17,400 nt of DNA from a virus (lineage: Duplodnaviria > Heunggongvirae > Uroviricota > Caudoviricetes): the IMG/VR virus record IMGVR_UViG_2802429221_000010. The stretch is one strand, 5' to 3'. This document shows positions 1 through 15,411 of the stretch, piece after piece (position 1 is the stretch's first letter; each line of letters starts with the position of its first letter). The notes beneath the pieces were generated by a model. It saw only the letters and a list, made by a program, of their open reading frames with translations. It had not been told where the DNA came from and did not search any database. A program made the position numbers and the translations under genes.

Positions 1-1215
1 ATGCTGCTTTCAGACCTTGCTATCAGACGCGCGAAGCCGAAAGAAAAGGCTTATACGCTCAATGACGGTAACGGGCTTTCGTTACTCATTGAGCCGAACG
101 GCTCGAAAGGGTGGCGACTACGTTACAGGTTTGCAGGAAAGCCCAAAATGTTGTCATTGGGCGTGTACCCTGATGTGTCTCTGTCTGATGCCAGGGCGGC
201 AAGGGATGAGGCTAAAAGGCTTCTTGCTGGTGGTATAAATCCAAGTGAGGCCAGAAAAGCCCAAAAGCGAGAACAGGCGAGCAAATTTGGCAATACTTTT
301 GAGGGTATCGCTCGCGAATGGTACGAAAAGCGGATCGACAGGTGGTCATCGTCATACGCCGAGGAAATGATCGAGACGTTTGAAAAAGACGTTTTTCCGT
401 ACATTGGCGGTAGGCCGATCGCAGAAATTAAGCCGATGGAATTGCTGGCGGTTCTTTCCCGTCTTAATGACCGTGGTGCGACTGAAAAATTGCGTAAGGT
501 TCGCCAGCGATGTGGCGAGGTGTTCCGGTACGCAATCATCACCGGACGCGCCGAATATAATCCAGCCCCTGACCTGGTGAGCGCATTTGCTCCACATAAA
601 AAAGAGCATTACGCCTATCTGAAGGCCGACGAACTGCCGGAATTTTTCCGCGTTTTTAATACGTACACCGGAAGCCAGATCGTCAAACTGGCAATGCGGC
701 TATTAATTCTGACAGGTGTCAGACCCGGGGAATTACGGCAGGCAGAATGGCGGGAGATCGATTTTGATAATCGTTTGTGGGAAGTGCCTAAAGAACGAAT
801 GAAGATGCGCCGTCCGCATTGTGTGCCATTACCAGAACAGGCGATAAAAATACTGGAGCAGTTAAAAAACATGACAGGCCAGTATCAGTTTATTTTCCCC
901 GGTCGTATTCACCACAGTAAGCCAATGAGTGAAATGGCGATGAATGTACTCATTCGTCGTATTGGCTACGCCGGGCGCGTCACTGGTCATGGATTCCGGC
1001 ACACCATGAGCACCATTTTGCATGAACAGGGCTATAACACTGCGTGGATAGAAACACAGCTTGCGCATGTTGATAAAAACTCAATTCGTGGCACGTACAA
1101 CCATGCGCAATATCTGGATGGTCGCCGGGAAATGCTCCAGTGGTACGCCGACTATATGGATTCGCTTGAGCATGGCGGAAATGTTGTTTACATAAAATCT
1201 GAAAAATTAAATTGA
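1..1215 (+). CDS. int: Tyrosine site-specific integrase, P4-type (phage integrase family)
   Basis: 404-aa ORF. N-terminal stretch LSDLAIRRAKPKEKAYTLNDGNGLSLLIEPNGSKGWRLRYRF matches the P4-type integrase arm-binding domain. C-terminal catalytic box GHGFRHT (H-x-x-R) plus downstream Tyr (TYNHAQY). ORF starts at window position 1, so the true start could lie upstream. Confidence 0.93.
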   Translation: MLLSDLAIRRAKPKEKAYTLNDGNGLSLLIEPNGSKGWRLRYRFAGKPKMLSLGVYPDVSLSDARAARDEAKRLLAGGINPSEARKAQKREQASKFGNTFEGIAREWYEKRIDRWSSSYAEEMIETFEKDVFPYIGGRPIAEIKPMELLAVLSRLNDRGATEKLRKVRQRCGEVFRYAIITGRAEYNPAPDLVSAFAPHKKEHYAYLKADELPEFFRVFNTYTGSQIVKLAMRLLILTGVRPGELRQAEWREIDFDNRLWEVPKERMKMRRPHCVPLPEQAIKILEQLKNMTGQYQFIFPGRIHHSKPMSEMAMNVLIRRIGYAGRVTGHGFRHTMSTILHEQGYNTAWIETQLAHVDKNSIRGTYNHAQYLDGRREMLQWYADYMDSLEHGGNVVYIKSEKLN

Positions 1216-1245: not shown

Positions 1246-2154
1246 ATGCTTCCTGAAAGATTGTTTTACACTCTGAATAAAGCAGCTTTTGAGATAAATA
1301 GAGATGTTTATGATTTATTTCACTATATATCAATCGGAATGGTTGATGTAGCAATAAATATAGACTTGTCAGATCTTATTGAAGAAGGAAGGGTCTCTGT
1401 TCGTGGTAAATTTAATAAAGAAATATTTACTAATACAAGAAGTAAAAAATTCAGACATCGCTCTAACTATGCAAAAATAAGTGAAGTTATTAGTTGCGAA
1501 TCTAATGGAAAGTTAAAACATAGAAAAGTCATTAAGGCATGTGGTCTTTTTTCTGTCCGAACATCCAATCTTTTTAAGATGGATGCTGATTTTGATAACG
1601 TGAAAGAATTTGTTGTTGATAGGCTATATCCAGTGAGGCTTCCATCTTTTACGCACTATAACTTGGAGGATTATAACCCACGAGTAATTTTAATTGATGG
1701 TGGTATAAATATTAAAACAAGCGATTTAGTTATAACTAAAAGTGAATTATTTTTGCTTAAAAATGGTGGAGTGACAATAAATTGGAGATTAAACCAAGTC
1801 AAATCATCTATGGATAAGTATCCCGATTTTATTAAAAGTAAAATGGATGGGGGAAATTCACGTAGTTGCGAAACAATTAACAAAATGGTGGGTAAGCCTA
1901 GAAATATCTATCGAAATGTTATTGTTGATGTAGCGAAAGCTACTCGTATTTCTTATCCGTGGAGCCATACGACATTAATTATCAATAAAATACACTCCTT
2001 GCTTTATTCTGTTGATGCTGTTAATACACCTAAAGTAGGTACAATTAGAAATATTCTTTGTTCAGAAGGAATTGGCAAAACAGGAGTGGAAACAAAAGAT
2101 GATTTCCGCTTGGTTATCCCAGAGGAGTACAGAAAATTATTTAAATTGAATTAA
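1246..2154 (+). CDS. Hypothetical protein, 302 aa, AT-rich orphan gene; function unknown (candidate cargo)
   Basis: Stop-bounded ORF with AGGTGA Shine-Dalgarno 4 nt before the ATG, 30 bp after the int stop. Visibly AT-rich (roughly one-third GC by eye) against about 50% GC in int and alpA. No motif recognised. Confidence 0.6.
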   Translation: MLPERLFYTLNKAAFEINRDVYDLFHYISIGMVDVAINIDLSDLIEEGRVSVRGKFNKEIFTNTRSKKFRHRSNYAKISEVISCESNGKLKHRKVIKACGLFSVRTSNLFKMDADFDNVKEFVVDRLYPVRLPSFTHYNLEDYNPRVILIDGGINIKTSDLVITKSELFLLKNGGVTINWRLNQVKSSMDKYPDFIKSKMDGGNSRSCETINKMVGKPRNIYRNVIVDVAKATRISYPWSHTTLIINKIHSLLYSVDAVNTPKVGTIRNILCSEGIGKTGVETKDDFRLVIPEEYRKLFKLN

Positions 2155-2252
2155 ATTGTATTTAATTTAAATTTTAATATTTAATTTAAAAAATACATCC
2201 TTCTCTTGTGTATATTCCAGAAACAGACTTTTATATGCATCAGGAGAAGTGT

Positions 2253-2453
2253 ATGGATAAGCAAAATTTAATTCGTATGCCAGAAACCATGCGCCGTACA
2301 GGCTATGGTAGGGCATGGATCTATAAACTCATTGCCCAAGGGCGTTTTCCTAAACCTGTAAAAATTGGCTCGCGAGCGATTGCTTTCGTTGAGAGTGAAA
2401 TTGATGAGTGGATTAATCAGCGTATTGCGGAATCACGCGGAACAGCTACCTGA
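2253..2453 (+). CDS. alpA: AlpA-family transcriptional regulator / excisionase-like HTH protein
   Basis: Translation LIRMPETMRRTGYGRAWIYKLI...IAFVESEIDEWINQR parallels E. coli AlpA (ILRLPAVIQKTGMARATIYDWL...VGWIEAEIDEWLSQR). AGGAGA Shine-Dalgarno precedes the ATG at 2253; the ORF track start at 2208 lacks one. Confidence 0.85.
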   Translation: MDKQNLIRMPETMRRTGYGRAWIYKLIAQGRFPKPVKIGSRAIAFVESEIDEWINQRIAESRGTAT

Positions 2454-2531: not shown

Positions 2532-3332
2532 ATGAAACTGCGAAAAACGCCCGTACAGGGGCAGGGCTTCGTTCGGCCTGAAAACCAGAATCTGCAAAAT
2601 TTCGGCGAAATTATCCCGATTATTTCCGGCGTTATTGGCGGGAGTGAAACCACTATTGTTAGCGCCAGAGCGTTACATAAGGCGTTAGGTGTAGGGCGCG
2701 TTTTCCGTTCGTGGATCAAGGGGCGCATTGAAGAATACGGGTTCACGGAAGGCGTGGATTATGAGGTTGTTGAATATTTGAGCCGACCCGATCCGGTGAG
2801 CGCAAAATCTCGCCAGCAAACCGCTCTTGAGTACATCATCACAGTGAACATGGCAAAAGAACTGGCGATGGTCGAACGCACCGAACAGGGCCGCGCCGTT
2901 CGTCAGTACTTCATCAAATGCGAGGAGGAGCTACACAAGGTAGCGCCAGTGCGTTCCGCAGCGTTACGCCGGGAACTGAAAGCCCGTATCACAGTTGCCA
3001 GCTACTTTAAGCCAATGTGTGCCGCGTTGGAGGCGTACCGGGCTGAACTGGGTAAAAACACGTTCCAGCACCACTACACCACGGAAGCCAATATGCTGGC
3101 GCGTATCGTGCTGGGTGGCATGACTGCAAAACAGTGGGCGCAGGCGAACGGCATCACAGGCGAACCACGCGACCACATGAGCACGTTGCAGCTTGAGCAC
3201 CTTTCTTACCTTGAGCAGAGCAATATCACGCTGATTGAGTTAGGCCTGGACTACCACCAGCGGAAAGCTGAATTAATTCGTCTTTCGCAGCGTTGGTTAG
3301 CCCGTCGCATGGAGGAAAACAGCCATGTGTAA
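2532..3332 (+). CDS. Phage antirepressor-like protein (AntA/AntB-type N-terminal domain)
   Basis: 266-aa ORF with AGGAG Shine-Dalgarno. Segment SARALHKALGVGRVFRSWIKGRIEEYGFTEGVDYEV resembles the AntA-family core. Domain assignment is from memory, not a search. Confidence 0.65.
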   Translation: MKLRKTPVQGQGFVRPENQNLQNFGEIIPIISGVIGGSETTIVSARALHKALGVGRVFRSWIKGRIEEYGFTEGVDYEVVEYLSRPDPVSAKSRQQTALEYIITVNMAKELAMVERTEQGRAVRQYFIKCEEELHKVAPVRSAALRRELKARITVASYFKPMCAALEAYRAELGKNTFQHHYTTEANMLARIVLGGMTAKQWAQANGITGEPRDHMSTLQLEHLSYLEQSNITLIELGLDYHQRKAELIRLSQRWLARRMEENSHV

Positions 3333-4863
3333 CGCTCTGACCGTTACAAAAAGAGAAAGCGCCCCGTTGCCGGAGCGCCTTTGTGAACGAATAGCCTACT
3401 GCGCCATATTGCTTACTGTCTACGAGGCAGATTATAGCGTTGTGGTCGCACAGAGTGAAGGCGCTGATCACCGTTACTACAGCACGCCAGAAATGCAGAA
3501 TATTTTGCTGCAAAATGTCGTTGGTCACGCTGTCCGGAAAGCAAAAAATTTTGCTGGTAGCGCGACTGATGCGATTTTGTCAGGTCGCCAGGTGATGATC
3601 AATCTGATGTCTAATTTCGTTCTGGATAAAACAAAGGCGACCGCAGAGGGCCACCAGTGGGAAAGCTACACACTTGAACACATCGCCAACAATGCCAGAT
3701 TTGCGGCTGGTGGGCAATGTGATCAGTGTGCTGGCTTGCTGGTGGGCTATTCCTGCTCTTTAACATTGCCATGCCGCGATGTTTTCCAGGTATGCGACCC
3801 CATTTTTGTGCGCCTGTACTCTTTAAGGAATTTCTCAAGGATAAACGCACAGGGCGCGAATCTGTCTGACTCATATTCGTACGCTATCTTTCTGCGCTGT
3901 CTTTTCCGTGCCGGTGATGGTGTATTGGTTGATTCTTTGTTGGTCATTCTGTGTACCTGTAAAGCAATGCGCCGGAGTTCCTCACACCACGGCGATGATA
4001 GTTATTATTCTGATTCTTTGGCCTTGCGGCGCTGGAGTTCTTCACGTGCGACGGTGACGAGTTGCCCGATCTCCTCGACAGCTTTGACTCCGATTTTTTC
4101 CACCTGCGCCAGTGCATTGAGCGAAGAAACCAGGGGATTTTCTCCGCTTCCTTCTGCCTGGCGGCGGGCGATCTCACCACGCATGGCGGTTACTATGAAT
4201 CCGGCGTTGCTTTCGCCGTCCAGTTTTACGGATTCCATGCCTTCAAAAGCATCATGTGGGATACGAATTGAAATCTGTTTTGATTTGTCGTTGATAGTGT
4301 TTTTTGCCATGTGCATTCTCCTAAACAAAAGATGTGATTCAGTATACACAAAAAAGAATCACAAAAAATACTTGACCTGTGATTCAGTTAAATTTAATTT
4401 AAATCACACCTCAGTAAGAGGATGTAAACGACAACGCCCCGAACTGTTTGCGGCAGTAGCGGGGCGTCTAACCAAACCGTTAAATGAGGTAACGATTATG
4501 GCTGGGGCACAGCATACCCAAACTCACCCTAAATTTATATACACCTTCCTGGCGGTGCACCGTGATTGCATGGCTGACGGTAAAAACACTGTTCATGTAG
4601 CCGCCGATACGCTGGTTGATGCCTGCGAGATGCTCAATGACATGGGCTATATCTCGGCAACATGGAAAGGGCGCGAAGAAAACACGTTGTTTATTCAGAA
4701 ATGCGAAAACAATTTTATCTGGCGTTTTATCGCCCTGAGTACGGCACAACCGCGCGTGATTCACATCGAGGCCACCAGCGAACAGGAAGCACGCCAGCAA
4801 TCTCCTGATGGCTGCGTGATGGTATTCGCTGCCCATATTCGCCAGGAGGTGGAGCATGTGTAA
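3325..4863 (+). CDS. ORF of uncertain extent: translationally coupled start, plausible coding N-terminus, remainder probably not a real 512-aa protein
   Basis: ATG at 3325 overlaps the upstream stop (ccATGTGTAAcg). First roughly 120-160 codons have protein-like composition. From about 3800 the translation turns Ser/Cys/Arg-rich and low-complexity, runs antisense through the RHH-like gene (4005-4310) and its operator region, and ends in frame with the better-supported start at 4498. Confidence 0.25.
   Translation: MCNALTVTKRESAPLPERLCERIAYCAILLTVYEADYSVVVAQSEGADHRYYSTPEMQNILLQNVVGHAVRKAKNFAGSATDAILSGRQVMINLMSNFVLDKTKATAEGHQWESYTLEHIANNARFAAGGQCDQCAGLLVGYSCSLTLPCRDVFQVCDPIFVRLYSLRNFSRINAQGANLSDSYSYAIFLRCLFRAGDGVLVDSLLVILCTCKAMRRSSSHHGDDSYYSDSLALRRWSSSRATVTSCPISSTALTPIFSTCASALSEETRGFSPLPSAWRRAISPRMAVTMNPALLSPSSFTDSMPSKASCGIRIEICFDLSLIVFFAMCILLNKRCDSVYTKKNHKKYLTCDSVKFNLNHTSVRGCKRQRPELFAAVAGRLTKPLNEVTIMAGAQHTQTHPKFIYTFLAVHRDCMADGKNTVHVAADTLVDACEMLNDMGYISATWKGREENTLFIQKCENNFIWRFIALSTAQPRVIHIEATSEQEARQQSPDGCVMVFAAHIRQEVEHV
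4005..4310 (-). CDS. Ribbon-helix-helix-like small DNA-binding protein; candidate element repressor
   Basis: Translation MAKNTINDKSKQISIRIPHDAFEGMESVKLDGESNAGFIVTAMRGEI has a beta-strand then helix pattern typical of RHH (CopG/Arc) folds. AGGAGA sits 6 nt before the ATG at 4310 on the minus strand. Divergent from the + strand gene run, with palindromic repeats between. Confidence 0.6.
   Translation of the reverse strand: MAKNTINDKSKQISIRIPHDAFEGMESVKLDGESNAGFIVTAMRGEIARRQAEGSGENPLVSSLNALAQVEKIGVKAVEEIGQLVTVAREELQRRKAKESE
4330..4412. promoter_or_regulatory. Divergent promoter/operator region with TGTGATTC inverted repeats
   Basis: TGTGATTC (4333-4340) and GAATCACA (4355-4362) form one palindrome; TGTGATTCAG (4377-4386) and AATCACA (4402-4408) form a second. 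A TTGACC -35-like hexamer (4371-4376) lies between them, with a possible -10 TAATTT about 17 bp downstream. Confidence 0.45.
4498..4863 (+). CDS. Hypothetical protein, 121 aa
   Basis: ATG at 4498 preceded by GAGGT 7 nt upstream, located downstream of the promoter/operator region. Globular-looking composition. Stop overlaps the next gene's start (gcATGTGTAAtg). Confidence 0.5.
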   Translation: MAGAQHTQTHPKFIYTFLAVHRDCMADGKNTVHVAADTLVDACEMLNDMGYISATWKGREENTLFIQKCENNFIWRFIALSTAQPRVIHIEATSEQEARQQSPDGCVMVFAAHIRQEVEHV

Positions 4864-5080
4864 TGCAACATGGCCTGATGCAGCGGTAGACGCTATCAAA
4901 ACGCTGATGGATTCACTTATTGAGATTTCTGCTATCGCTGGTGTGGCGCATAAACACGCAGCCAGAGAATCAGAATGCATCTCCCATTATTTAGCATTTG
5001 TGCAGCTGAAAGCCGATCAGGCACTGGATAAGGCCGGAAAAATTATCATGGCTGATGTGCAGGAGGTGCACCATGCATAA
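4856..5080 (+). CDS. Hypothetical small protein, 74 aa
   Basis: AGGAGG 6 nt upstream of the ATG. Start overlaps the upstream stop and its stop overlaps the next start (ccATGCATAA). Begins MCNA, like the ORF at 3325. Confidence 0.5.
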   Translation: MCNATWPDAAVDAIKTLMDSLIEISAIAGVAHKHAARESECISHYLAFVQLKADQALDKAGKIIMADVQEVHHA

Positions 5081-5438
5081 CCTGTCAATTTCTGACCTTA
5101 ACAGCATTCAGTTTGACGAGAAATTTACCGGGCAGCTACTGGTCAATGTGGAGAATGGACGCGTGGTAAGTAATTATCACCTGCCGGATGGTGCAATTGC
5201 CGGAAGCGTTGAAGCATTGCTGGAGCTGGCAGAACGTGCGCGACTGATTAAGCCGTTAACGTGCCATCACGATGATAATCTGCATTTTACCGGACGCATG
5301 GTGAGTCACTACGAAAACGGCGTTGAAGTATCCTGCGAACGTCTGCGTGATGATTGCTGTTTCGGCACATTGCCGGAATTTATCGAATTGCTGACCAGTT
5401 GCGGTTATCAGGTCATTCAGGGGGGGAAACATGCGTGA
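5073..5438 (+). CDS. Hypothetical protein, 121 aa; paralogue of the 5657-5857 product
   Basis: AGGAGG 6 nt upstream of the ATG at 5073. N-terminus MHNLSISDLNSIQFDEKFTGQLLVNVENGRV aligns with MHNHEAHVPVVLNVPDDFTGRVLVYLDKGKV of the 5657 ORF. Confidence 0.6.
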   Translation: MHNLSISDLNSIQFDEKFTGQLLVNVENGRVVSNYHLPDGAIAGSVEALLELAERARLIKPLTCHHDDNLHFTGRMVSHYENGVEVSCERLRDDCCFGTLPEFIELLTSCGYQVIQGGKHA

Positions 5439-5861: not shown

Positions 5862-6152
5862 ATGAAAAAGAAAAATTCTGGCTTTACTGCCAGCGGTCTC
5901 TCTCGGCCTGAAATCAGACACGGAGATATTTACCGCGACACCATACGTGGGGGACGAGCGGTTATTTGTCATGTTACGCCAGAAAATATCACCTACCGCC
6001 GTGACGCTTATGAATATGACTGCATAATGCCGTGCCGTCAGTTTGAGCGTGATTTTATTCTGGTGGAGAACAAACAACAGGAAGCGACGAGACGTGCAGC
6101 CATGAATATTAAAAAAATCCGGGCAATGTTGGTTGCGGGAGGTAAGAAGTGA
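5862..6152 (+). CDS. Hypothetical protein, 96 aa
   Basis: Stop-bounded ORF immediately upstream of the primase; its TGA overlaps the primase GTG start (GTGA at 6149-6152). Confidence 0.5.
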   Translation: MKKKNSGFTASGLSRPEIRHGDIYRDTIRGGRAVICHVTPENITYRRDAYEYDCIMPCRQFERDFILVENKQQEATRRAAMNIKKIRAMLVAGGKK

Positions 6153-7954
6153 AAAACGCACCGAGTCTAAAATATCAGCCGAAGGATAAATTCACTGAGG
6201 TAATCATTTTTGCCGGGACGGATGCTTACGCCCATGCTCAACACTGGATTGAAAGTGAAGGACGAAAACACGGCGATAACGTGCCTCCTGTTTACCTGGG
6301 GCCAAAGCAACTGGCAGACCTGGCGAATATCCGCATTATTGACGAGAAACGCCGTTTTGCGCGTGTCTATATCGCGGGGGAGATAGAGCCAATCCAGATC
6401 AATACTATCGCTGAAAAGCTGGCGCTGGCTGGCGTACAGGACGCGAAATTATACAAAGGTATCACCGACCGGGAGCCGGAAAACTGGCGCGACTACCTGC
6501 AACGGATCCGCGAACAGGCAGAGAGTGGGGAAGTTTCAGCGATGAAATTAGCCACAAAAAATATTGACCTACCCAGGCCAGCACTAAATCAGATGGGAGC
6601 CAGCCAGAGAGGGGAAGTGTTACTTGAATATTATGGAAGAGCACTGGCTATAAATGATGATTCTGATGTAGTTCACCATTACAACGGAATTGTCTGGGTG
6701 CCTGTATCTGATAAGGAACTCCAGCGGTCTATGGCGAAGATTTTTATTGATGCTGGAATCAGTTATTCGCAAAACGCCATTAAATTTGCCGTAGACACAA
6801 TGAAATTGAGCCTGCCTGTTATGGGCGGGGCAGACAGGAATCTTATTGGATTCAGTAACGGGGTATTTGATACCCGGACGGGAAATTTTCGGGAGCATAA
6901 CAAAAATGACTGGTTGTTAAATGCCAGTGAATTACCGTTCAGCCCACCAGCAGAGGGGGAAACGCTGGCAACACATGCGCCGAATTTCTGGAAGTGGCTG
7001 CGTCGTTCGGTGGCAGATAATGATCGTAAAGCTGATCGCGTACTGGCGGCATTATTCATGGTACTGGCGAACCGGTACGACTGGCAGTTATTCCTTGAGG
7101 TAACAGGCCCAGGCGGAAGCGGTAAAAGTGTGATGGCTGAGATTTGTACCATGCTGGCGGGTAAGGCCAACACAGTATCGGCAAGCATGAAGGCTCTGGA
7201 AGACGCAAGGGAACGCGCGTTAGTAGTTGGCTTTTCGCTGATTATCATGCCGGATATGACTCGCTACGCTGGCGATGGTGCAGGAATTAAGGCAATTACT
7301 GGCGGCGACAAGGTGGCAATTGATCCGAAACATAAAGCCCCCTACTCCACACGTATTCCGGCAGTAGTGCTTGCGGTAAACAATAACGCCATGTCATTCA
7401 GTGACCGAAGCGGGGGGATCTCGCGTCGTAGGGTGATATTTAATTTCTCTGAGGTCGTACCGGAGAACGAACGCGATCCCATGCTGGCGGAAAAGATAGA
7501 AGGCGAACTGGCGGTAGTGATTCGCCATTTGCTAACACGATTTACCGACCAGGACGAAGCTAAAAGACTACTTTATGAGCAGCAAAAATCAGAAGAAGCG
7601 CTGTTGATAAAGCGCGAAGGTGATTCACTGGTGGACTTTTGCGGCTATCTGATGTCGTTGGTTAAATGTGAAGGAATGATGGTGGGCAATGCGGAAATAG
7701 TGCCATTTAGCCCGAGGCGATACCTGTATCATGCTTATTTAGCCTATATGTCAGCGCATGGCCTGGGAAAACCAGTATCACTGACACGCTTTGGTACTGA
7801 TATGCCAGGAGCTATGGCGGAATACGGAAAGGAGTATAAGCGGGCTAAATGCACTAAAGGCCCGGATAAAGGGCGAGTGATAACAAATGTTCTGTTAGAT
7901 GATGATGCTGATGGCTGGTTGCCAGCAGCTACAGGGATTAACGACAGAACATAA
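6149..7954 (+). CDS. Primase-helicase-type replication protein (P4 alpha / D5-like NTPase)
   Basis: 601-aa ORF with Walker A GPGGSGKS at 7106-7129 and a downstream hydrophobic strand ending in acidic residues (LIIMPDM). The N-terminal half is long enough for a primase-like domain. Immediately followed by an iteron array. Confidence 0.88.
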   Translation: MKNAPSLKYQPKDKFTEVIIFAGTDAYAHAQHWIESEGRKHGDNVPPVYLGPKQLADLANIRIIDEKRRFARVYIAGEIEPIQINTIAEKLALAGVQDAKLYKGITDREPENWRDYLQRIREQAESGEVSAMKLATKNIDLPRPALNQMGASQRGEVLLEYYGRALAINDDSDVVHHYNGIVWVPVSDKELQRSMAKIFIDAGISYSQNAIKFAVDTMKLSLPVMGGADRNLIGFSNGVFDTRTGNFREHNKNDWLLNASELPFSPPAEGETLATHAPNFWKWLRRSVADNDRKADRVLAALFMVLANRYDWQLFLEVTGPGGSGKSVMAEICTMLAGKANTVSASMKALEDARERALVVGFSLIIMPDMTRYAGDGAGIKAITGGDKVAIDPKHKAPYSTRIPAVVLAVNNNAMSFSDRSGGISRRRVIFNFSEVVPENERDPMLAEKIEGELAVVIRHLLTRFTDQDEAKRLLYEQQKSEEALLIKREGDSLVDFCGYLMSLVKCEGMMVGNAEIVPFSPRRYLYHAYLAYMSAHGLGKPVSLTRFGTDMPGAMAEYGKEYKRAKCTKGPDKGRVITNVLLDDDADGWLPAATGINDRT

Positions 7955-8337: not shown

Positions 8338-8868
8338 ATGACTAAGCTGACCATTAACAGAAAACCAAAAGGTATTTACGGCACGCCGCAGAAAACGACG
8401 CAGGCGGCGCAGCAGCAGGATAAAACCACATCGGCGCATAAAGTGATGCCCGGTAACCAGAAAGCGCAGCAGAAGCCCACAGGGGCAACACCGTGGCGGC
8501 ATATGACCAAACGGCAGCGAAAAAACCGCAGACGCGTTAACCGCCTCACTGAGTTGTGGCCTGAATTATTCAGCCGGGAAGCACCGAAGCCGCTTAAGGT
8601 GGGGATATTCGACGACCTGATGCAGGATCTCGCCGTCAGGGGGCTGGCATTCGGGCCAGGGGCATTGCGTGCGACGCTGGCATCTTATGCGCAGTGTCCG
8701 CGCTATTACCGCGCCTTAATGGCTGGTGGGGTACGCTACGACCTGAAATGCCAGCCGTGCGGCGAGGTGACACCACAGGAACAACAGGACGCAGAAACGC
8801 GGCTGGTTGCGCTGAATGAGAAACGCAAACGTCAGCGTCGGGCAGCAAAGGAGAAAACAGGCGCATGA
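8338..8868 (+). CDS. ProQ/FinO-domain RNA-binding protein
   Basis: Segment PLKVGIFDDLMQDLAVRGL...LRATLASYAQCPRYYRALMAGGVRYDLKCQPCGEVTPQEQ aligns with E. coli ProQ N-terminal domain (PLKIGIFQDLVDRVAGEM...[39 protein letters not shown]). N-terminal half is basic and low-complexity. Start could be 8326 or 8338. Confidence 0.8.
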   Translation: MTKLTINRKPKGIYGTPQKTTQAAQQQDKTTSAHKVMPGNQKAQQKPTGATPWRHMTKRQRKNRRRVNRLTELWPELFSREAPKPLKVGIFDDLMQDLAVRGLAFGPGALRATLASYAQCPRYYRALMAGGVRYDLKCQPCGEVTPQEQQDAETRLVALNEKRKRQRRAAKEKTGA

Positions 8869-9152
8869 TTCACGACAGCAAAGCGGAAGCTCTGGAAGCG
8901 CGTGGTCTGTACCGGAGAGCGGCGGCGCGGTGGGCTGAGGTCATCATGCTGGCGAATGATGACAAGGCACGGGAACAGGCGGCAAAACGTCGCGCGGAAT
9001 GTATCCACAAGGCAGCACGCCCACCAGCAAGGCAGGATAATTTCGGGGAGATGCGCAAAACCATCAGCCGGGCACATGCCGGGATGGGATTACATCAGCC
9101 CAATGGTGAGGCATTCAGGAAATACCAAAAAAAGAACAATTGTAGTCAGTAA
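8865..9152 (+). CDS. PerC-family transcriptional regulator-like protein
   Basis: 95-aa ORF with ATGA overlap onto the upstream stop. N-terminal SKAEALEARGLYRRAAARWAEVI resembles the PerC/Pch signature as I recall it; not checked by search. Confidence 0.6.
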   Translation: MIHDSKAEALEARGLYRRAAARWAEVIMLANDDKAREQAAKRRAECIHKAARPPARQDNFGEMRKTISRAHAGMGLHQPNGEAFRKYQKKNNCSQ

Positions 9153-9286
9153 CAGAGGATGGGATTCTCTTGGTTTTTTGTTGATGCTTTCTGAGGAAAT
9201 CTACTACGTTGCTGAGCAGATGAATATTCAATTGCATCTGGGTTCCTGATAAGATTAATCTGAATATTTTCATTTGGAATAGGGAT

Positions 9287-10429
9287 ATGAATAAAACTTT
9301 AATTGCAACATTAGTCGGTATAGTAATGTTAACCGGATGTGGGCCAGAAGAGTTAACTCCAGAACAGAAACAGGAAGTAGCGGCTCTTAAAGCTGAACTG
9401 TCGCAAACGGAAGGTGAAATATCAGCAGCTAAGGAAGTTGACCAGCAGTTTTCTGGTGGGTTGATAAAAAATCTGACAACAGCAAGACTGGAAATATTAG
9501 GAACTAATAAAGCGCTTTTGGAACAGCGTATTAATGCTATTGAATCAGGCGCCAAAATTGATGTTGTTGTATCTGGAGTAAAACCTGATCCTGAGCTTGC
9601 GGCTTCAATTAAAACTGAAATTGACAGCTTAGATGCAAAAATCAACGAAGCCAAAGCTGATGCTCGTCAGTATAGTGGTGGTCTGATAAAGGTACTAAAA
9701 TTATCTACTGTTGCCACTGAAGAGCAGACTATGGCAATGTTGCAGCAAAAGTACCTCACAGCCAAGTATGGCCTCGCTGAAGTTAAGCTGGCATCAGTAC
9801 AAGATAATGACGCAAAAAACAGTACTGAAACGGAAGTAACAGCCAAAAATTCCCAAGATCAACTTCCTTTACTCCCGCCAGCGGATGGTCCGTTTGGCTT
9901 AGAAGCCGGTCTTACACAGAAAAACATCGAAGATATGATCGGTGCTAAGCTCAAGCCACTACCAGACAGTGTGAATCTGTATACTTCTGATAAATTACCG
10001 AAGCAAAACGCAGATTTTGAAATGTATGGTTTGTTGATCTCCCCGAAAGCTGGTTTATGTCAAATACGGGCTTTAGGAAAAAATATTGATACTGATAGCT
10101 ATGGATTGGCTCTTAAATCCAAGTTTGAAGAATTGAGTAATTCTTTAAGTTCTCTGTATGGAAAGGCTGATACTACAGACTTTTTGCTGGCTGGTTCAAT
10201 TTGGAAAGATCCTCAGGACTGGATGAGGGGGCTAAACAAAAAAGAACGCTTCTTATCTGCCACATGGAAAGGAACAAAAGAAATACCATTAAAAAACAAT
10301 ATTGATACTATCTCTATTGAGGCCAGAGCGAACAATTCCACTCAGGGATATGTCTATCTGCAGTACTCATTTACAAATGACGAAATTTGTCAGGCAGAAA
10401 TTGAAGGGGCGAAAAAAAGTTCCCTTTAA
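9287..10429 (+). CDS. Lipoprotein, 380 aa, with internally repeated coiled-coil-like N-terminal region; function unknown
   Basis: Signal peptide with lipobox MNKTLIATLVGIVMLTGC. Two copies of the motif (Q/R)Q(F/Y)SGGLIK(N/V)L within helical, charged segments. AGGGA Shine-Dalgarno. Lower GC than the replication module. Confidence 0.8.
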   Translation: MNKTLIATLVGIVMLTGCGPEELTPEQKQEVAALKAELSQTEGEISAAKEVDQQFSGGLIKNLTTARLEILGTNKALLEQRINAIESGAKIDVVVSGVKPDPELAASIKTEIDSLDAKINEAKADARQYSGGLIKVLKLSTVATEEQTMAMLQQKYLTAKYGLAEVKLASVQDNDAKNSTETEVTAKNSQDQLPLLPPADGPFGLEAGLTQKNIEDMIGAKLKPLPDSVNLYTSDKLPKQNADFEMYGLLISPKAGLCQIRALGKNIDTDSYGLALKSKFEELSNSLSSLYGKADTTDFLLAGSIWKDPQDWMRGLNKKERFLSATWKGTKEIPLKNNIDTISIEARANNSTQGYVYLQYSFTNDEICQAEIEGAKKSSL

Positions 10430-11532: not shown

Positions 11533-11632
11533 ATCAGTAAGGGGCGGTTATTGCCCCTTTCCTCCATACCCACAACGCATTCCCTTTCCGCATGAAATTA
11601 TTTTTTTATCGTATATGCATGAGGTGAGCTAC

Positions 11633-12160
11633 ATGTTGATGAGTAAAGCCGAATACGCCAAATACAAAGGCGTAAGCCGCCAGACAGTTTACGACTGGAT
11701 CGAGAAAGGCGAAGTGATCATGTCTGGCAAAAAAATTGATGTGGATGCGACAGATCAGCGGAACAGCCCACCAGCACAGGGGAAAGACACCGTTTCTGAA
11801 ATGTGGCCAGAGAGAACGCTGGAAATGACGTGGGGCGAGTTCTGGAAAGCAGTTAAGGCCAGAGACGGTAAAATCCCTGCACCAGTAACGGACGATGACA
11901 TACGGCAGCGTGTGCTGAATGCAGCCGGGGAATTAGGCTGGGAAGTGCACTTTCTTGATGATGGTGCTATCTGCCTTGAGGATGATGAAGGACAGCATTA
12001 CTTTGAACAATACAATTTGCGGGGTAATGCCTGGCTGGCAATTCATATGCTGCGTTGTGAACTATGCTATGTTGCCAGCGATTGTCCCGATGAACAGGAC
12101 ACATGGAGTGAGGCAGGACTAAACGCCCTGGCTGAATGGGAAAAATCAGGCCATCAATGA
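11633..12160 (+). CDS. HTH-domain protein, 175 aa; excisionase/terminase-small-subunit-like N-terminus
   Basis: GAGGTGAG Shine-Dalgarno before the ATG at 11633. N-terminus SKAEYAKYKGVSRQTVYDWIEKGEV is an HTH of the type seen in lambda Nu1 and excisionase-like proteins. Immediately followed by a direct-repeat array. Confidence 0.7.
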   Translation: MLMSKAEYAKYKGVSRQTVYDWIEKGEVIMSGKKIDVDATDQRNSPPAQGKDTVSEMWPERTLEMTWGEFWKAVKARDGKIPAPVTDDDIRQRVLNAAGELGWEVHFLDDGAICLEDDEGQHYFEQYNLRGNAWLAIHMLRCELCYVASDCPDEQDTWSEAGLNALAEWEKSGHQ

Positions 12161-13424: not shown

Positions 13425-14480
13425 GTGTCTACACAGAAAATTGAAGAAAAATTTACATCTGCACAAGATGCATTAGTAATTCAGCAATCCGATTTATCAT
13501 TAAAGTCACTTTCTGATATGGTTGAATTAGATGCAGTAGATATAAGTCCAAAATATCAGAGAAGGGAGCGTTGGACTGCGGAGAAAGAGTCAAGTTTGAT
13601 TGAATCATTCTTGCTAAACATCCCGGTCCCGCCAATTTATCTCGCAGAGGATAGATATGGAATCTACTCAGTAATAGATGGAAAGCAAAGAATAACGGCT
13701 ATAAATAAATTTTTAACAAATAAAATGAAACTCGTGGAATTAGAAAAATTTCCAGAGTTAGAAGGGTTCTATTTTAAAGACTTACCCCAACCTCTTTCTA
13801 ATGCATTAAGCATCCGACCATATTTAAGAGTGGTCACATTATTGCGCCAATCTGACCCAGACTTAAAGCATGAAGTCTTTCTGAGATTAAATAAAGCAGG
13901 AGTATCTTTAAATTCTCAAGAGATAAGAAATGTTGCTTTTAGAGGGGATTTAAATGATGCTCTTATTGAACTGTCGGATACTCCATTTTTAAAAGAAATG
14001 CTTAAATCAAATAAAAATACTAAAATTTACCAAGAAATGGGAGATGTTCAGTTTGTGTTGAGGTTTTTTACTGTGTTTGATTTGTGGGAAAATTTTCCAG
14101 GTAATATGGATAAAGCTATGGATCTATTTATGGCGAAAAAATCTCGCAGCTCAATTCAAGATGTTAACGAAATGAAGCGGTTATTTTTGCGCTCAATTCA
14201 TTTTTGCGAGACGGTGTGGGGTAATGATGCATACAAAAGAATTGATAACAGTCAACGCGTAATTCAAGGTATGTATGATGTCCAGATGGTTTGCCCTGCC
14301 TTTTTACAACAAAATGAATATGATCATGCCATGGAAAATGCTGCTGATGTAAGACGACTCTTAGTTGATGAACTTTCAAATAATGCGGATTTTCTTGAAT
14401 CAGTGACTCAGTTCACGTCTAACCCAAGAAATATTGCATATAGAATATCACACTTCTGTGACCTTCTGAGAAGAATTTAA
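13425..14480 (+). CDS. DUF262-domain protein (ParB/Srx-like NTP-binding domain as in GmrSD-type enzymes N-termini)
   Basis: GTG start with AAGGG 7 nt upstream. N-terminal motif ISPKYQRRERW (13548-13580) fits the DUF262 P-x-(F/Y)-Q-R...W box; DGKQRITA (13677-13700) fits the DGQQR box. AT-rich. Stop TAA 14478-14480 lies 1 nt before the next ATG. Confidence 0.85.
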   Translation: MSTQKIEEKFTSAQDALVIQQSDLSLKSLSDMVELDAVDISPKYQRRERWTAEKESSLIESFLLNIPVPPIYLAEDRYGIYSVIDGKQRITAINKFLTNKMKLVELEKFPELEGFYFKDLPQPLSNALSIRPYLRVVTLLRQSDPDLKHEVFLRLNKAGVSLNSQEIRNVAFRGDLNDALIELSDTPFLKEMLKSNKNTKIYQEMGDVQFVLRFFTVFDLWENFPGNMDKAMDLFMAKKSRSSIQDVNEMKRLFLRSIHFCETVWGNDAYKRIDNSQRVIQGMYDVQMVCPAFLQQNEYDHAMENAADVRRLLVDELSNNADFLESVTQFTSNPRNIAYRISHFCDLLRRI

Positions 14481-14481
14481 T

Positions 14482-15411
14482 ATGCCTATTCCAGCGAAGG
14501 ACAATTTGCTAAAAAGAATCCTGTCTGTAGATAATGCAACTCAACTACCAGCACTTATCGATAAAGATGTTATGCAGGAACAACACAATATCACAGCTAA
14601 TCTTCTGAGAAAAGGCTTAGGTATAGTAGCATTTAATATTCTGGAAGATTTTATAAAATCCAGAACTATAGAAATGTTTGATTTTATATCTAATGCACGT
14701 GTGAGATTCGAGCAGTTACCCGATTCTTTTAGAATTGCAGCAACAAATGGTGCATTAAGAGGATTAGTATATCAGGCTGGATTAGAAAAGAAAAATAATG
14801 GAGATTGGTTGGCACTAATACATTCTGAGGCCAAAAGTATTTTTTCAACGTCGCAATTTCCTTATACATTATCTCGAGTATCACTTCTTTCAGATGGTTC
14901 TAATGTTGGACATGATGATATACCAGAAGTAATGAAGTGTCTTGATATAACTGGTGGGTGGAAGACATTACAAAAAATATCGAACGATATTGGTGGTGGT
15001 ACATTAGATCTGAATGCTGCTTATAAAAATATGTTTTTCGATAGAAATAGATGTGCTCATGAAGCAGGTTTTAATTATCCATATACCTCTCTCGATAATT
15101 CTTTAAATGACATTGTTACTATTGCTTCTGCATTTGACATAGCGTTAACTACTCGTTGCAGGTATATAGAAAAACAACCTAATTTACCGCTTTCAGCTCA
15201 TAAAGAAAAAGATCCGTTTTCATATCGGTTTTTAATCGCTGATGGAGATGTTTTTCGAGAGAAAAAATCATTAGAACCTGGTGCGAAAACAATAAAAAAA
15301 TGGAGTAATATCTCTGATGCACAATCTAATTTAATTCCTAAGCTAAGACTCCGCGATGAGTTTTTGATTTATATAGGAAAACAGAGAAGGCTTAGTGATT
15401 GGTATTTGTGA
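14482..15411 (+). CDS. Hypothetical protein, 309 aa, with a HEPN-like R-x4-H motif; partner of the DUF262 gene
   Basis: Tightly coupled to the DUF262 gene (TAAtATG). Contains FDRNRCAHEAG (R-x4-H at 15043-15060), compatible with a HEPN RNase active site. No DUF1524/HNH-like (D/E)H-x-x-P motif seen. AT-rich. Confidence 0.75.
   Translation: MPIPAKDNLLKRILSVDNATQLPALIDKDVMQEQHNITANLLRKGLGIVAFNILEDFIKSRTIEMFDFISNARVRFEQLPDSFRIAATNGALRGLVYQAGLEKKNNGDWLALIHSEAKSIFSTSQFPYTLSRVSLLSDGSNVGHDDIPEVMKCLDITGGWKTLQKISNDIGGGTLDLNAAYKNMFFDRNRCAHEAGFNYPYTSLDNSLNDIVTIASAFDIALTTRCRYIEKQPNLPLSAHKEKDPFSYRFLIADGDVFREKKSLEPGAKTIKKWSNISDAQSNLIPKLRLRDEFLIYIGKQRRLSDWYL

Follow-up and report, generated by a model that had tools for sequence, protein, structure and literature searches.

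The 17,400-nucleotide stretch of DNA analysed here (IMG/VR record IMGVR_UViG_2802429221_000010, referred to as the window) is, judged by its sequence, an Escherichia coli island that resembles phage satellites, either a phage-inducible chromosomal island (PICI) or a PICI-like element. Its minus strand encodes a 101-amino-acid protein of the YlcI/YnfO family, and the corresponding gene (ylcI) diverges from a plus-strand operon that opens with an Icd-like gene and leads to replication genes. The two genes and the putative regulatory elements at the place where they meet are as follows:

4005-4310, minus strand: ylcI, the gene for the 101-amino-acid YlcI/YnfO-family protein (ATG at 4310, stop at 4005).
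4318-4322, minus strand: Shine-Dalgarno sequence of ylcI, AGGAG, 7 nucleotides before the ATG, as read from the sequence.
4333-4363: putative operator O1, 31 bp, TGTGATT-N17-AATCACA or in its longer form TGTGATTC-N15-GAATCACA, with half-sites at 4333-4340 (TGTGATTC) and 4356-4363 (GAATCACA).
4341-4346, minus strand: probable -10 element of the ylcI promoter, TATACT, predicted from its conservation across loci.
4364-4377, plus strand: A-tract AAAAATAC, which resembles an UP element, followed by the -35 hexamer TTGACC (4372-4377) of the operon promoter.
4378-4408: putative operator O2, 31 bp, TGTGATT-N17-AATCACA, with half-sites at 4378-4384 and 4402-4408.
4395-4400, plus strand: probable -10 element of the operon promoter, TAATTT, 17 bp past TTGACC.
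4424-4505, minus strand: candidate cis-antisense RNA of about 80 nucleotides (5' end at 4505, 3' end at 4424) with two stem-loops and a U-rich tail.
About 4433-4468, minus strand: stem-loop 2 of this RNA, a bipartite hairpin (4434-4467) between O2 and the Icd-like start, next to the U-rich tail.
About 4470-4503, minus strand: stem-loop 1, with the anti-start codon in the stem and the anti-Shine-Dalgarno CCUC in the loop.
4498-4863, plus strand: Icd-like gene, the first of the operon, 121 amino acids (NCBIfam NF033153, 78.1 bits), with the Shine-Dalgarno sequence GAGG at 4486-4489.
4511-4516, minus strand: -10-like hexamer TATGCT, a putative promoter element of the antisense RNA with a weak -35, within codons 5-7 of the Icd-like gene.

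An earlier sequence-only reading had described a 101-amino-acid minus-strand gene with a strong Shine-Dalgarno sequence, its divergence from a plus-strand operon leading to the primase, and two imperfect palindromes on either side of a TTGACC hexamer. All of this is borne out, as the plus-strand run reaches a primase-helicase gene and the hexamer lies between two palindromes that are more regular than had been described.

The same open reading frame (ORF) is annotated as 'YlcI/YnfO family protein' in near-identical E. coli RefSeq records, and family membership is supported by a match to NCBIfam NF041551 over residues 9-50 (64.9 bits against a cutoff of 30); phrog_6522, to which no function is assigned, matches the protein over its full length. 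The family is small, with 70 clusters at 50% identity among 1.84 billion proteins, and comes in a long form of about 100 amino acids and a short form of about 60 amino acids like YlcI of E. coli K-12, which scores 37.6 bits with NF041551. DNA similar to the ylcI gene is present in 502 of 5426 complete E. coli genomes, and the module is also found in Yersinia, Klebsiella, Enterobacter, Photorhabdus and Pantoea, among others, with a purine-rich Shine-Dalgarno sequence at the equivalent place in related loci. The architecture of the window was not seen in the region upstream of K-12 ylcI, and a tblastn search with the 101-amino-acid protein against 50,697 phage records gave no match; a short relative in phage record LR881103 was reached solely via the RNA model described below.

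The AlphaFold2 model of the protein (mean pLDDT 84; alignment of 49 sequences) consists of an extended segment, helices at residues 19-28 and 35-55 and a single long helix at residues 59-100. As modelled, residues 9 to 55 or thereabouts are a ribbon-helix-helix (RHH) DNA-binding domain of some 48 N-terminal residues with its strand at about residues 11-17, and the beta-alpha-alpha order over about 45 residues is that of the MetJ/Arc/CopG fold. The C-terminal helix is conserved, even in loci without a partner gene, and includes the invariant residues I73 and G74, making it a candidate surface for interaction or oligomerisation. Residues 59-84 (window 4059-4136, 'LSSL(D/N)ALAQVEKIGVKAxEEI') match the helix-hairpin-helix domain of Hef weakly (1x2i, E 0.012). 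The helix-hairpin-helix reading of residues 45-86, which came from a profile search of PDB sequences, was set aside and the Hef match is not relied on, because AlphaFold2 predicts one continuous helix.

O1 and O2 stand in a register of 45 bp, and of the five TGTGATT heptamers that the 17.4 kb of the window contain, four fall within these 76 bp. The paired pattern is observed twice, against a mean of 0.00 in 200 dinucleotide-preserving shuffles, none of which contained even one pair. The window yielded no further paired operators, whether upstream of int, alpA or antA or elsewhere, and direct control of these three genes is therefore not indicated. The predicted regulon consists of ylcI itself and the replication operon, and the candidate role of a 'master' repressor given to the protein in the sequence-only reading is not supported.

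The locus was compared with eight loci from other genera, eight loci taken for proteins with different N-termini, and 80 viral contigs, and the 17-locus set spans about 10 genera. The layout is kept in the 17 loci and the 80 viral contigs. Read from the replication-operon side towards ylcI, the shared order is a distal half-site, about 17 nucleotides that include a -10 element, a second half-site, GTCAA (TTGAC on the other strand), a T-tract, a third half-site, a TATACT-like -10 element, a fourth half-site, and then the Shine-Dalgarno sequence and ATG. An A-rich octamer (e.g. AAAAAGnn) followed by TTGACn, a spacer of 17-18 bp (17 bp in 13 loci) and TAnnnT (mostly TAAnnT) is present in 15 of the 17 loci, and TATACT, TATAAT, TATATT or TATAGT is located between half-sites 3 and 4 regardless of the operator class. 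One half-site of O2 lies directly after the -35 element of the operon promoter and the other directly after its -10 element, so that O2 covers the predicted start site, and O1 brackets the -10 element and spacer of the ylcI promoter as the mirror image of O2; bracketing of the O2 type also occurs in other loci and in LR881103. The -35 position of the ylcI promoter (4364-4369) is poor, reading ATTTTT. Such a geometry would be that of polymerase exclusion at both promoters, i.e. of an autoregulated repressor whose target promoter is strong and whose own promoter is weak. The layout that had been proposed from the sequence is upheld in that each operator brackets one of the divergent promoters and the half-sites co-vary with the recognition strand (see below), and repression of both promoters is considered probable.

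The geometry also bears on the strongest of the alternatives, in which the protein binds these operators but is mainly an activator or switch that stimulates its own weak promoter, or one that brings about an Arc- or Cro-like late shut-off, and is not the maintenance repressor of the island. Both Mnt and lambda CI stimulate their own promoters, and the poor -35 element of the ylcI promoter would suit such a role, as would the O2 half-site at 4378-4385, which, counted from the predicted ylcI start, falls at about -42 to -49, where activators classically bind. A precedent within the same class of elements is AlpA, the known positive master regulator of Gram-negative PICIs (PMC6092414). However, O1 brackets the ylcI -10 element exactly as O2 brackets that of the operon, which favours repression at both, and the gene forms a separate leftward unit with a strong Shine-Dalgarno sequence of its own, as is expected of a gene expressed in the quiescent state. 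A mainly activating or switching role is thus judged unlikely compared with repression.

The sequence of the half-sites varies by locus. All arms change together and always with residues 11-17 of the protein, the predicted recognition strand, in such a way that the half-sites are kept across genera inside one recognition-strand class and replaced between classes. The pairs of strand and half-site are:

K/RQISIRI with TGTGATT, in E. coli, Yersinia pekkanenii and Klebsiella michiganensis.
QL(T/F)TVRV with TGTGTTTC, in E. coli, Photorhabdus and Scandinavium.
QSLTARI with TGTAAG(AC/TA), in Enterobacter, Klebsiella and viral contigs.
QSVTARI with TGTAATTA.
QMTT(L/I)RV with GTGAGATATA / GTGATATACA, in E. 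coli and Y. enterocolitica.
Q(I/L)KN(V/I)R(I/V) with GTGTGTAT / GTGTGCAT.
QQLNARF with TGGTATTCA.

Among 43 distinct loci, a repeated 7-mer is shared by 78 of 134 pairs of loci with the same strand core and by 29 of 769 pairs with different cores (permutation 0/2000), a count that is inflated by relatedness among the loci. The cross-genus footprint formed by the window and the loci L004 and L017, in which all four half-sites are kept while the spacers between them diverge, is the stronger evidence of the two. These three loci have the same operators and different Icd-like genes, so the type of Icd-like gene does not follow the operator class, and the same applies to the replication protein. 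Many E. coli genomes match the window over 4005-4266 only (residues 16-101, about 93%), the similarity being lost over the strand codons and the operators, and natural swaps of the strand accompany swaps of the operators while residues from about 25 to 101 stay about 76-100% identical at the DNA level. The scaffold thus stays constant, and strand and operators behave as a specificity cassette that can be exchanged upon it. Within the strand, the outward-facing positions 12 and 14 vary (Q/S, L/T, S/T, M/T, I/N, Q/N), R16 is constant, and so is the GTG core of the sites, which suggests a simple recognition code that links strand positions 12 and 14 to the variable part of the half-site. The dependence of specificity on an N-terminal strand and the use of inverted repeat sites would both fit an RHH protein, and the palindromes are very probably the operators of the YlcI/YnfO protein, bound at these half-sites.

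The same comparisons weigh on the possibility that another factor binds the repeats, whether as iterons of the primase or another replication protein, as sites for AlpA or the Icd-like protein, or as sites for host CRP (TGTGA...TCACA). The half-sites do resemble the TGTGA/TCACA of CRP, iterons are common near satellite replication genes, and the PHROG families matched by the Icd-like protein carry the label 'transcriptional repressor'. Yet the TGTGA and TCACA cores are spaced by 21 bp and not by 6 bp as for CRP, and other classes have TGTAAGAC, GTGAGATATA or TGGTATTCA in place of TGTGATT, which excludes a fixed host factor; the CRP reading was rejected on both counts. Iterons were rejected since the same operators accompany different replication proteins (D5_N in the window, Toprim-DUF927 in L017) as well as Icd-like variants, and track only the RHH strand. 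The sites are moreover located on promoter cores and not downstream of the primase, where PICI origins have been mapped (PMC6092414). Overall, binding by some other factor is quite improbable.

A third alternative would make the protein the RHH antitoxin of a type II toxin-antitoxin pair whose palindromes serve only the autoregulation of that pair. The toxin would be the product of orf66 (3747-3947, minus strand), a facultative gene for a basic 66-amino-acid protein of phrog_21027 (unknown function), which is called by the Prokaryotic Genome Annotation Pipeline (PGAP), starts 57 nucleotides downstream of ylcI and is probably co-transcribed with it. A terminator-like hairpin and T-run at 3636-3655 on the minus strand, found by consensus scan only, would end the ylcI-orf66 transcript. 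Homologues of orf66 are present in 41 of 84 related loci and in two of the eight loci with called genes, i.e. absent from 43 and six, respectively, so that the obligate adjacent toxin of a type II antitoxin is lacking, and the 66-amino-acid protein has no match in Pfam, NCBIfam or PADLOC. In addition, one operator is located on the divergent replication-operon promoter and not on the protein's own, the conserved synteny is with the replication module and not with a toxin, and the C-terminal helix is conserved even where there is no partner gene. The toxin-antitoxin reading was rejected on the patchy occurrence of orf66, the operator on the replication promoter and the synteny, and is given very little probability. 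That the palindromes are chance products of an AT-rich, low-complexity region (GC 0.42-0.45) around a non-functional ORF is already refuted by the comparative data and hardly worth entertaining, given the shuffles, the recurrence of the architecture in about 10 genera with compensated changes in all arms, and the matches to curated NCBIfam and PHROG models.

A second regulatory element, which the sequence-only reading had missed, is predicted on the ylcI strand, over the leader of the Icd-like gene. The candidate RNA has a minimum free energy of -31.6 kcal/mol (z = -4.37) and the same fold is found in 17 of 17 loci. Stem-loop 2 is 98.5% paired over the 17 loci with seven pairs changed on both sides, none of 500 shuffles being as good, and slid controls pair at only 37-53%. 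Both stem-loops taken together are 88.6% paired as against 36-50% for slid controls, and stem-loop 1 covaries too. The strand is indicated by the 25 G-U cells and 0 A-C cells of stem-loop 2, which result in pairing in 197 of 200 cells on the minus strand and in 172 of 200 on the plus strand; likewise, in 17/17 loci the complement is less stable than the minus-strand RNA, by a mean of 12.2 kcal/mol. Seven nucleotides upstream of the RNA sits a TAnnnT hexamer of which T1, A2 and T6 are invariant in all 17 loci. The codons that overlap it encode differing residues (Q/N/K - H/S/C/R - T/N/I), and five different codons all end in T; that the three positions stay invariant in spite of these differences suggests that the DNA itself is under selection, as a -10 element would be.

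With a covariance model derived from 12 sequences (R1), the RNA scores 88.4 bits in the window and is recovered from all YlcI loci that were searched, at 47-90 bits and without exception on the strand of ylcI. No Rfam (15) family matches the RNA: searches at gathering score over the whole window and at E <= 10 over 3300-5100 gave nothing relevant, and matches to a snoRNA, to mir-367 and to the R1162 antisense RNA were discarded as below noise. It is quite probable that a structured minus-strand RNA exists, and it can be read as a candidate cis-antisense RNA directed against the leader of the Icd-like gene and its translation start, convergent with the rightward promoter about 95 bp away. That it inhibits expression of the Icd-like protein is somewhat less certain, with the balance in favour. 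A second copy of the RNA structure (58 bits) lies at 1484-1564 on the plus strand of L049, a viral contig, about 800 bp deeper in the replication operon, where it presumably precedes a second Icd-like gene.

The best explanation of the locus overall, and one with a good probability of being right, is an RHH repressor of the replication operon and of its own gene to which a layer of antisense RNA is added. RHH dimers, probably assembled into tetramers through the long C-terminal helix, would bind both 31-bp operators, and because each has one half-site in the spacer next to the -35 element and the other just 3' of the -10 element, RNA polymerase would be excluded. Binding to O2 would shut the intrinsically strong rightward promoter that serves the Icd-like gene, the small ORFs, DUF4222 and the primase-helicase, and binding to O1 would turn off the repressor gene at its own weak leftward promoter, which would amount to negative autoregulation. 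The RNA of about 80 nucleotides would start inside the first Icd-like codons, run convergently and end with a hairpin and U-tail shortly past the rightward start site, and would hence be complementary to the whole leader, the Shine-Dalgarno sequence and the start codon. It may block the translation of leaky transcripts, destabilise them or cause transcriptional interference, and control is probably two-layered, by protein and RNA. The strand and operators, which co-evolve and can be swapped as a cassette, would define immunity-like groups. In silico there is good support for a repressor that controls both the replication operon and its own gene. The sequences themselves show the modelled fold, the statistics of the operators, their co-variation with the protein, the geometry of promoters and operators, and the structure and strand of the RNA; binding, the sign of regulation, the oligomeric state, and the promoter and ends of the RNA are what we infer. 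That the protein is a maintenance repressor whose inactivation induces the island is a more tentative proposal, on present evidence a doubtful one.

Several points weigh against this explanation. The RHH-like N-terminus noted in the sequence-only reading is upheld by the modelled fold and not by a significant match to a curated RHH model: the Pfam RHH models are not reached, with PSK_trans_fac matching only below threshold (15.9 against a gathering score of 28.3) in 36 of 49 members, the best of which has an E-value of 9.8e-4. Foldseek with the full-length model returned nothing, and sequence and profile searches of the PDB found no solved RHH protein at E <= 10. The literature searched contains no functional study and no binding, transcript or phenotype data for any YlcI/YnfO protein. 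The centres of the half-sites lie 24 bp from each other (2.3 helical turns), an unusual distance for a simple RHH operator. A consensus promoter scan called nothing in the intergenic region, so that the predicted promoters rest on their conservation across loci, and both are weak matches, the operon promoter agreeing at 8 of 12 positions and that of ylcI having the poor -35 element. The U-tail of the RNA begins 3-4 nucleotides past the stem, and termination may be partial. Finally, the strand codons adjoin the operators, and linkage within a recombining block could yield part of the co-variation.

The Shine-Dalgarno sequence and ATG of the Icd-like gene are kept in 17 of 17 loci. Its product has 121 amino acids in the window, compared with 41-117 (mostly 60-72) in relatives, and PGAP annotates the gene in identical records as truncated (73 amino acids) or as a partial pseudogene. 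The protein holds two 'KF(I/T)(Y/W)xF(L/I)A' domain starts at residues 12-19 and 72-79 or so, which suggests that it arose by internal duplication or by fusion. In six loci from other genera (L004, L006, L008, L010, L016 and L017) the replication-operon leader contains a perfect DnaA box (TGTGGATAA = TTATCCACA) within a conserved CCTGTGGATAAGG block between the hairpin and the distal operator (about 2885-2900 in L017); the window has ACATCCTCTTACTGAGG at this place.

Annotation of the repressor gene is open to a trap, as the gene lies hidden beneath long spurious ORFs on the opposite strand. In the window, a mechanically called ORF of 512 amino acids (3325-4863, plus strand) runs opposite the repressor gene and across the promoters, and no more than its final 121 codons (4498-4863) correspond to a gene. 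LR881103 (L099, 'phage vB_KppS-Ant'), a 16.5-kb induced and packaged element with capsid, portal and terminase genes, was hit by the RNA model, and its annotated coding sequence for 324 amino acids (8578-9552, plus strand) conceals an unannotated 67-amino-acid YlcI/YnfO gene (8982-9185, minus strand; 58.7 bits with NF041551). There, inverted repeats GTGTACCCCCAC / GTGGGGGTGCAC bracket TTGACG-17-TATAGT, and the element also carries the antisense RNA and a separate Icd-like gene for 62 amino acids (9364-9552). The recurrence of the same artefact in both elements explains how such a regulator can be overlooked.

In near-identical genomes the island is inserted at tRNA-Thr, between proA and yagU. 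It shows the features of Gram-negative PICIs, namely int, alpA and a primase-helicase in this order, a tRNA site, a size of about 10-20 kb and no full set of virion genes, and fits their proposed zones of integration, Bro, replication and late genes (PMC10111431). Beyond the features already listed, its main genes are:

1-1215, plus strand: int, followed in the gene order by a gene of unknown function.
2208-2453, plus strand: alpA, encoding AlpA.
2532-3332, plus strand: antA, encoding an AntA-type protein.
6149-7954, plus strand: primase-helicase of the D5_N/DUF5906/P4 type, reached by the plus-strand run from the Icd-like gene.

Rightward from the Icd-like gene the order is four small ORFs, DUF4222, the primase-helicase, ProQ/FinO, PerC and then cargo of low GC content, with an NsnA-like GmrSD_N protein and a HEPN protein among its products. 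Across loci, int and alpA together with leftward ylcI on one side and small ORFs leading rightward to the primase on the other are syntenic, with the replication protein varying between D5_N, DUF927 and AAA_25. AntA, which the sequence-only reading had named beside a helper phage as something that might relieve repression, occurs in only 23 of 96 related loci and is thus not an obligate partner. A strong GC-rich hairpin with a T-run on the minus strand (3356-3381), 24 nucleotides past the AntA stop codon, may be a bidirectional terminator between the alpA-antA unit and the convergent ylcI unit. The cargo pair at 13425-15411 (plus strand, GC about 0.34) encodes a GmrSD_N/DUF262 protein, which matches PADLOC NsnA (7e-65) and PD-T4-2_A, and then a HEPN protein of the RiboL-PSP type, and is likely to be an anti-phage defence cassette; GapS1 is found at the same end of the sister island in APEC E123. 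A 181-amino-acid protein encoded at 11615-12160 (plus strand) has an N-terminal HTH_17 domain and weak PHROG matches to terminase small subunits and Cox-like excisionases, and the island may use it to redirect packaging or for excision.

EcCIMP1 is a PICI whose induction and transfer by a helper phage have been shown experimentally (PMC11773190). The window shares with it the tRNA-Thr site, int, AlpA, AntA, the Icd-like gene, DUF4222, the primase and PerC. EcCIMP1 has no YlcI gene; directly upstream of its Icd-like gene there is instead an ash gene with C4 and isrK RNAs inside it. C4 and isrK lie inside ash-family genes at 16600-16827 (minus strand) in EcCIMP1 (L100) and at 2121-2322 (minus strand) in L018, a Yersinia locus that also has c4-a1b1 there. 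L018 has both the C4-type system and YlcI with its antisense RNA, and the idea that the YlcI cassette simply replaces an Ash/C4 cassette was rejected for this reason. It seems, then, that two different devices place Icd-like genes under the control of small RNAs, with the YlcI cassette as one of several immunity parts that can be combined.

The sequence-only reading had likened the arrangement to Stl from pathogenicity islands found in Staphylococcus aureus (SaPIs). Like Stl and Rpr of SaPIs and Gram-positive PICIs, the YlcI/YnfO gene diverges from an excision or replication operon, with operators in the shared intergenic region, and to this extent the analogy is sound. It fails in that Stl is a larger helix-turn-helix protein encoded in the same direction as int (PMC6092414), whereas the protein here is of the RHH type and int, alpA and antA are all on the plus strand, convergent with ylcI. 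For Gram-negative PICIs the global repressor has been called 'unclear' and AlpA described as an activator (PMC6092414), and no RHH repressor of Gram-negative satellites is described in the literature searched. It is possible, although speculative, that the YlcI/YnfO RHH protein with its operators and the anti-Icd RNA is the missing repression ('immunity') module of many enterobacterial satellites including capsid-forming PICIs, that the cassette sets immunity groups which do not cross-react, and that the C-terminal helix is the target of an antirepressor of the helper phage or island. If true, Gram-negative PICIs would gain a Stl-like switch besides activation by AlpA. The locus offers a testable repressor candidate with defined operators for a sizeable subset of Gram-negative satellites, and a candidate function for the uncharacterised YlcI/YnfO family, whose K-12 members are y-genes. 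It also provides a natural series of specificity swaps, or RHH recognition code, on a constant scaffold that could serve the engineering of orthogonal repressors. The conserved antisense RNA would be an addition to Rfam, and Icd-like genes would come under small-RNA control in two different ways, by the sense-strand C4 RNA and by this cis-antisense RNA.

The combination of an RHH repressor with a countertranscript is already known in kind and does not represent a new kind of system. NikR-type RHH tetramers recognise the operator GTATGA-N16-TCATAC. The present operators resemble it in having inverted half-sites about two helical turns apart, presumably bound by two RHH dimers joined through C-terminal tetramerisation (here suggested by the predicted helix); unlike NikR, the YlcI/YnfO protein has no metal-binding domain and no sequence relationship to it.

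The immI region of P22 encodes the Mnt repressor, with O_mnt located between the divergent promoters P_mnt and P_ant, and the sar antisense RNA. Mnt and the YlcI/YnfO protein would both be small RHH repressors with a C-terminal oligomerisation helix, encoded divergently from the repressed operon and acting at an operator that overlaps the promoters, and sar is a short convergent antisense RNA that blocks translation of a gene in the controlled operon, as the candidate RNA here would. Unlike in P22, the protein has no detectable similarity to Mnt or Arc (PDB sequence search, E <= 10), a single operator of 17-21 bp is replaced by two of 31 bp whose half-sites are about 24 bp apart, the operon encodes Icd-like and replication proteins and not an antirepressor, and the RNA covers the ribosome-binding site of the first gene and the whole leader. 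In pMV158/pLS1, copy number is set by CopG, an RHH protein, and by the antisense RNA II acting on repB. Here the likeness is in the negative control of a replication operon by an RHH repressor and a small countertranscribed RNA at the translation-initiation region. In contrast, CopG heads the same operon and is not divergent from it, has 45 amino acids and no C-terminal helix, and belongs to a plasmid and not an integrated island; the only Rfam hit of this kind is non-significant, to another plasmid antisense RNA and on the opposite strand.

As in the immI region of P1 (c4 RNA - icd - ant) and the CI-type RNA immunity of P4 and PICIs, the Icd-like gene opens the operon and a small RNA would occlude its start. 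The C4/CI RNA (Rfam RF01695, clan CL00128) differs in being a processed sense-strand RNA whose targets lie upstream or downstream, whereas the candidate RNA here is cis-antisense on the opposite strand and a protein repressor is added. Although an RNA of the C4/CI type was to be expected upstream of an Icd-like gene, C4, isrK and c4-a1b1 were not found at gathering score in the window or at E <= 10 in 3300-5100, and in the positive control C4 was found in EcCIMP1 and L018. By analogy, the module seems closest in logic to Mnt/O_mnt/sar of P22 and CopG/RNA II of pMV158, and closest by position to the c4-icd immunity of P1 and P4.

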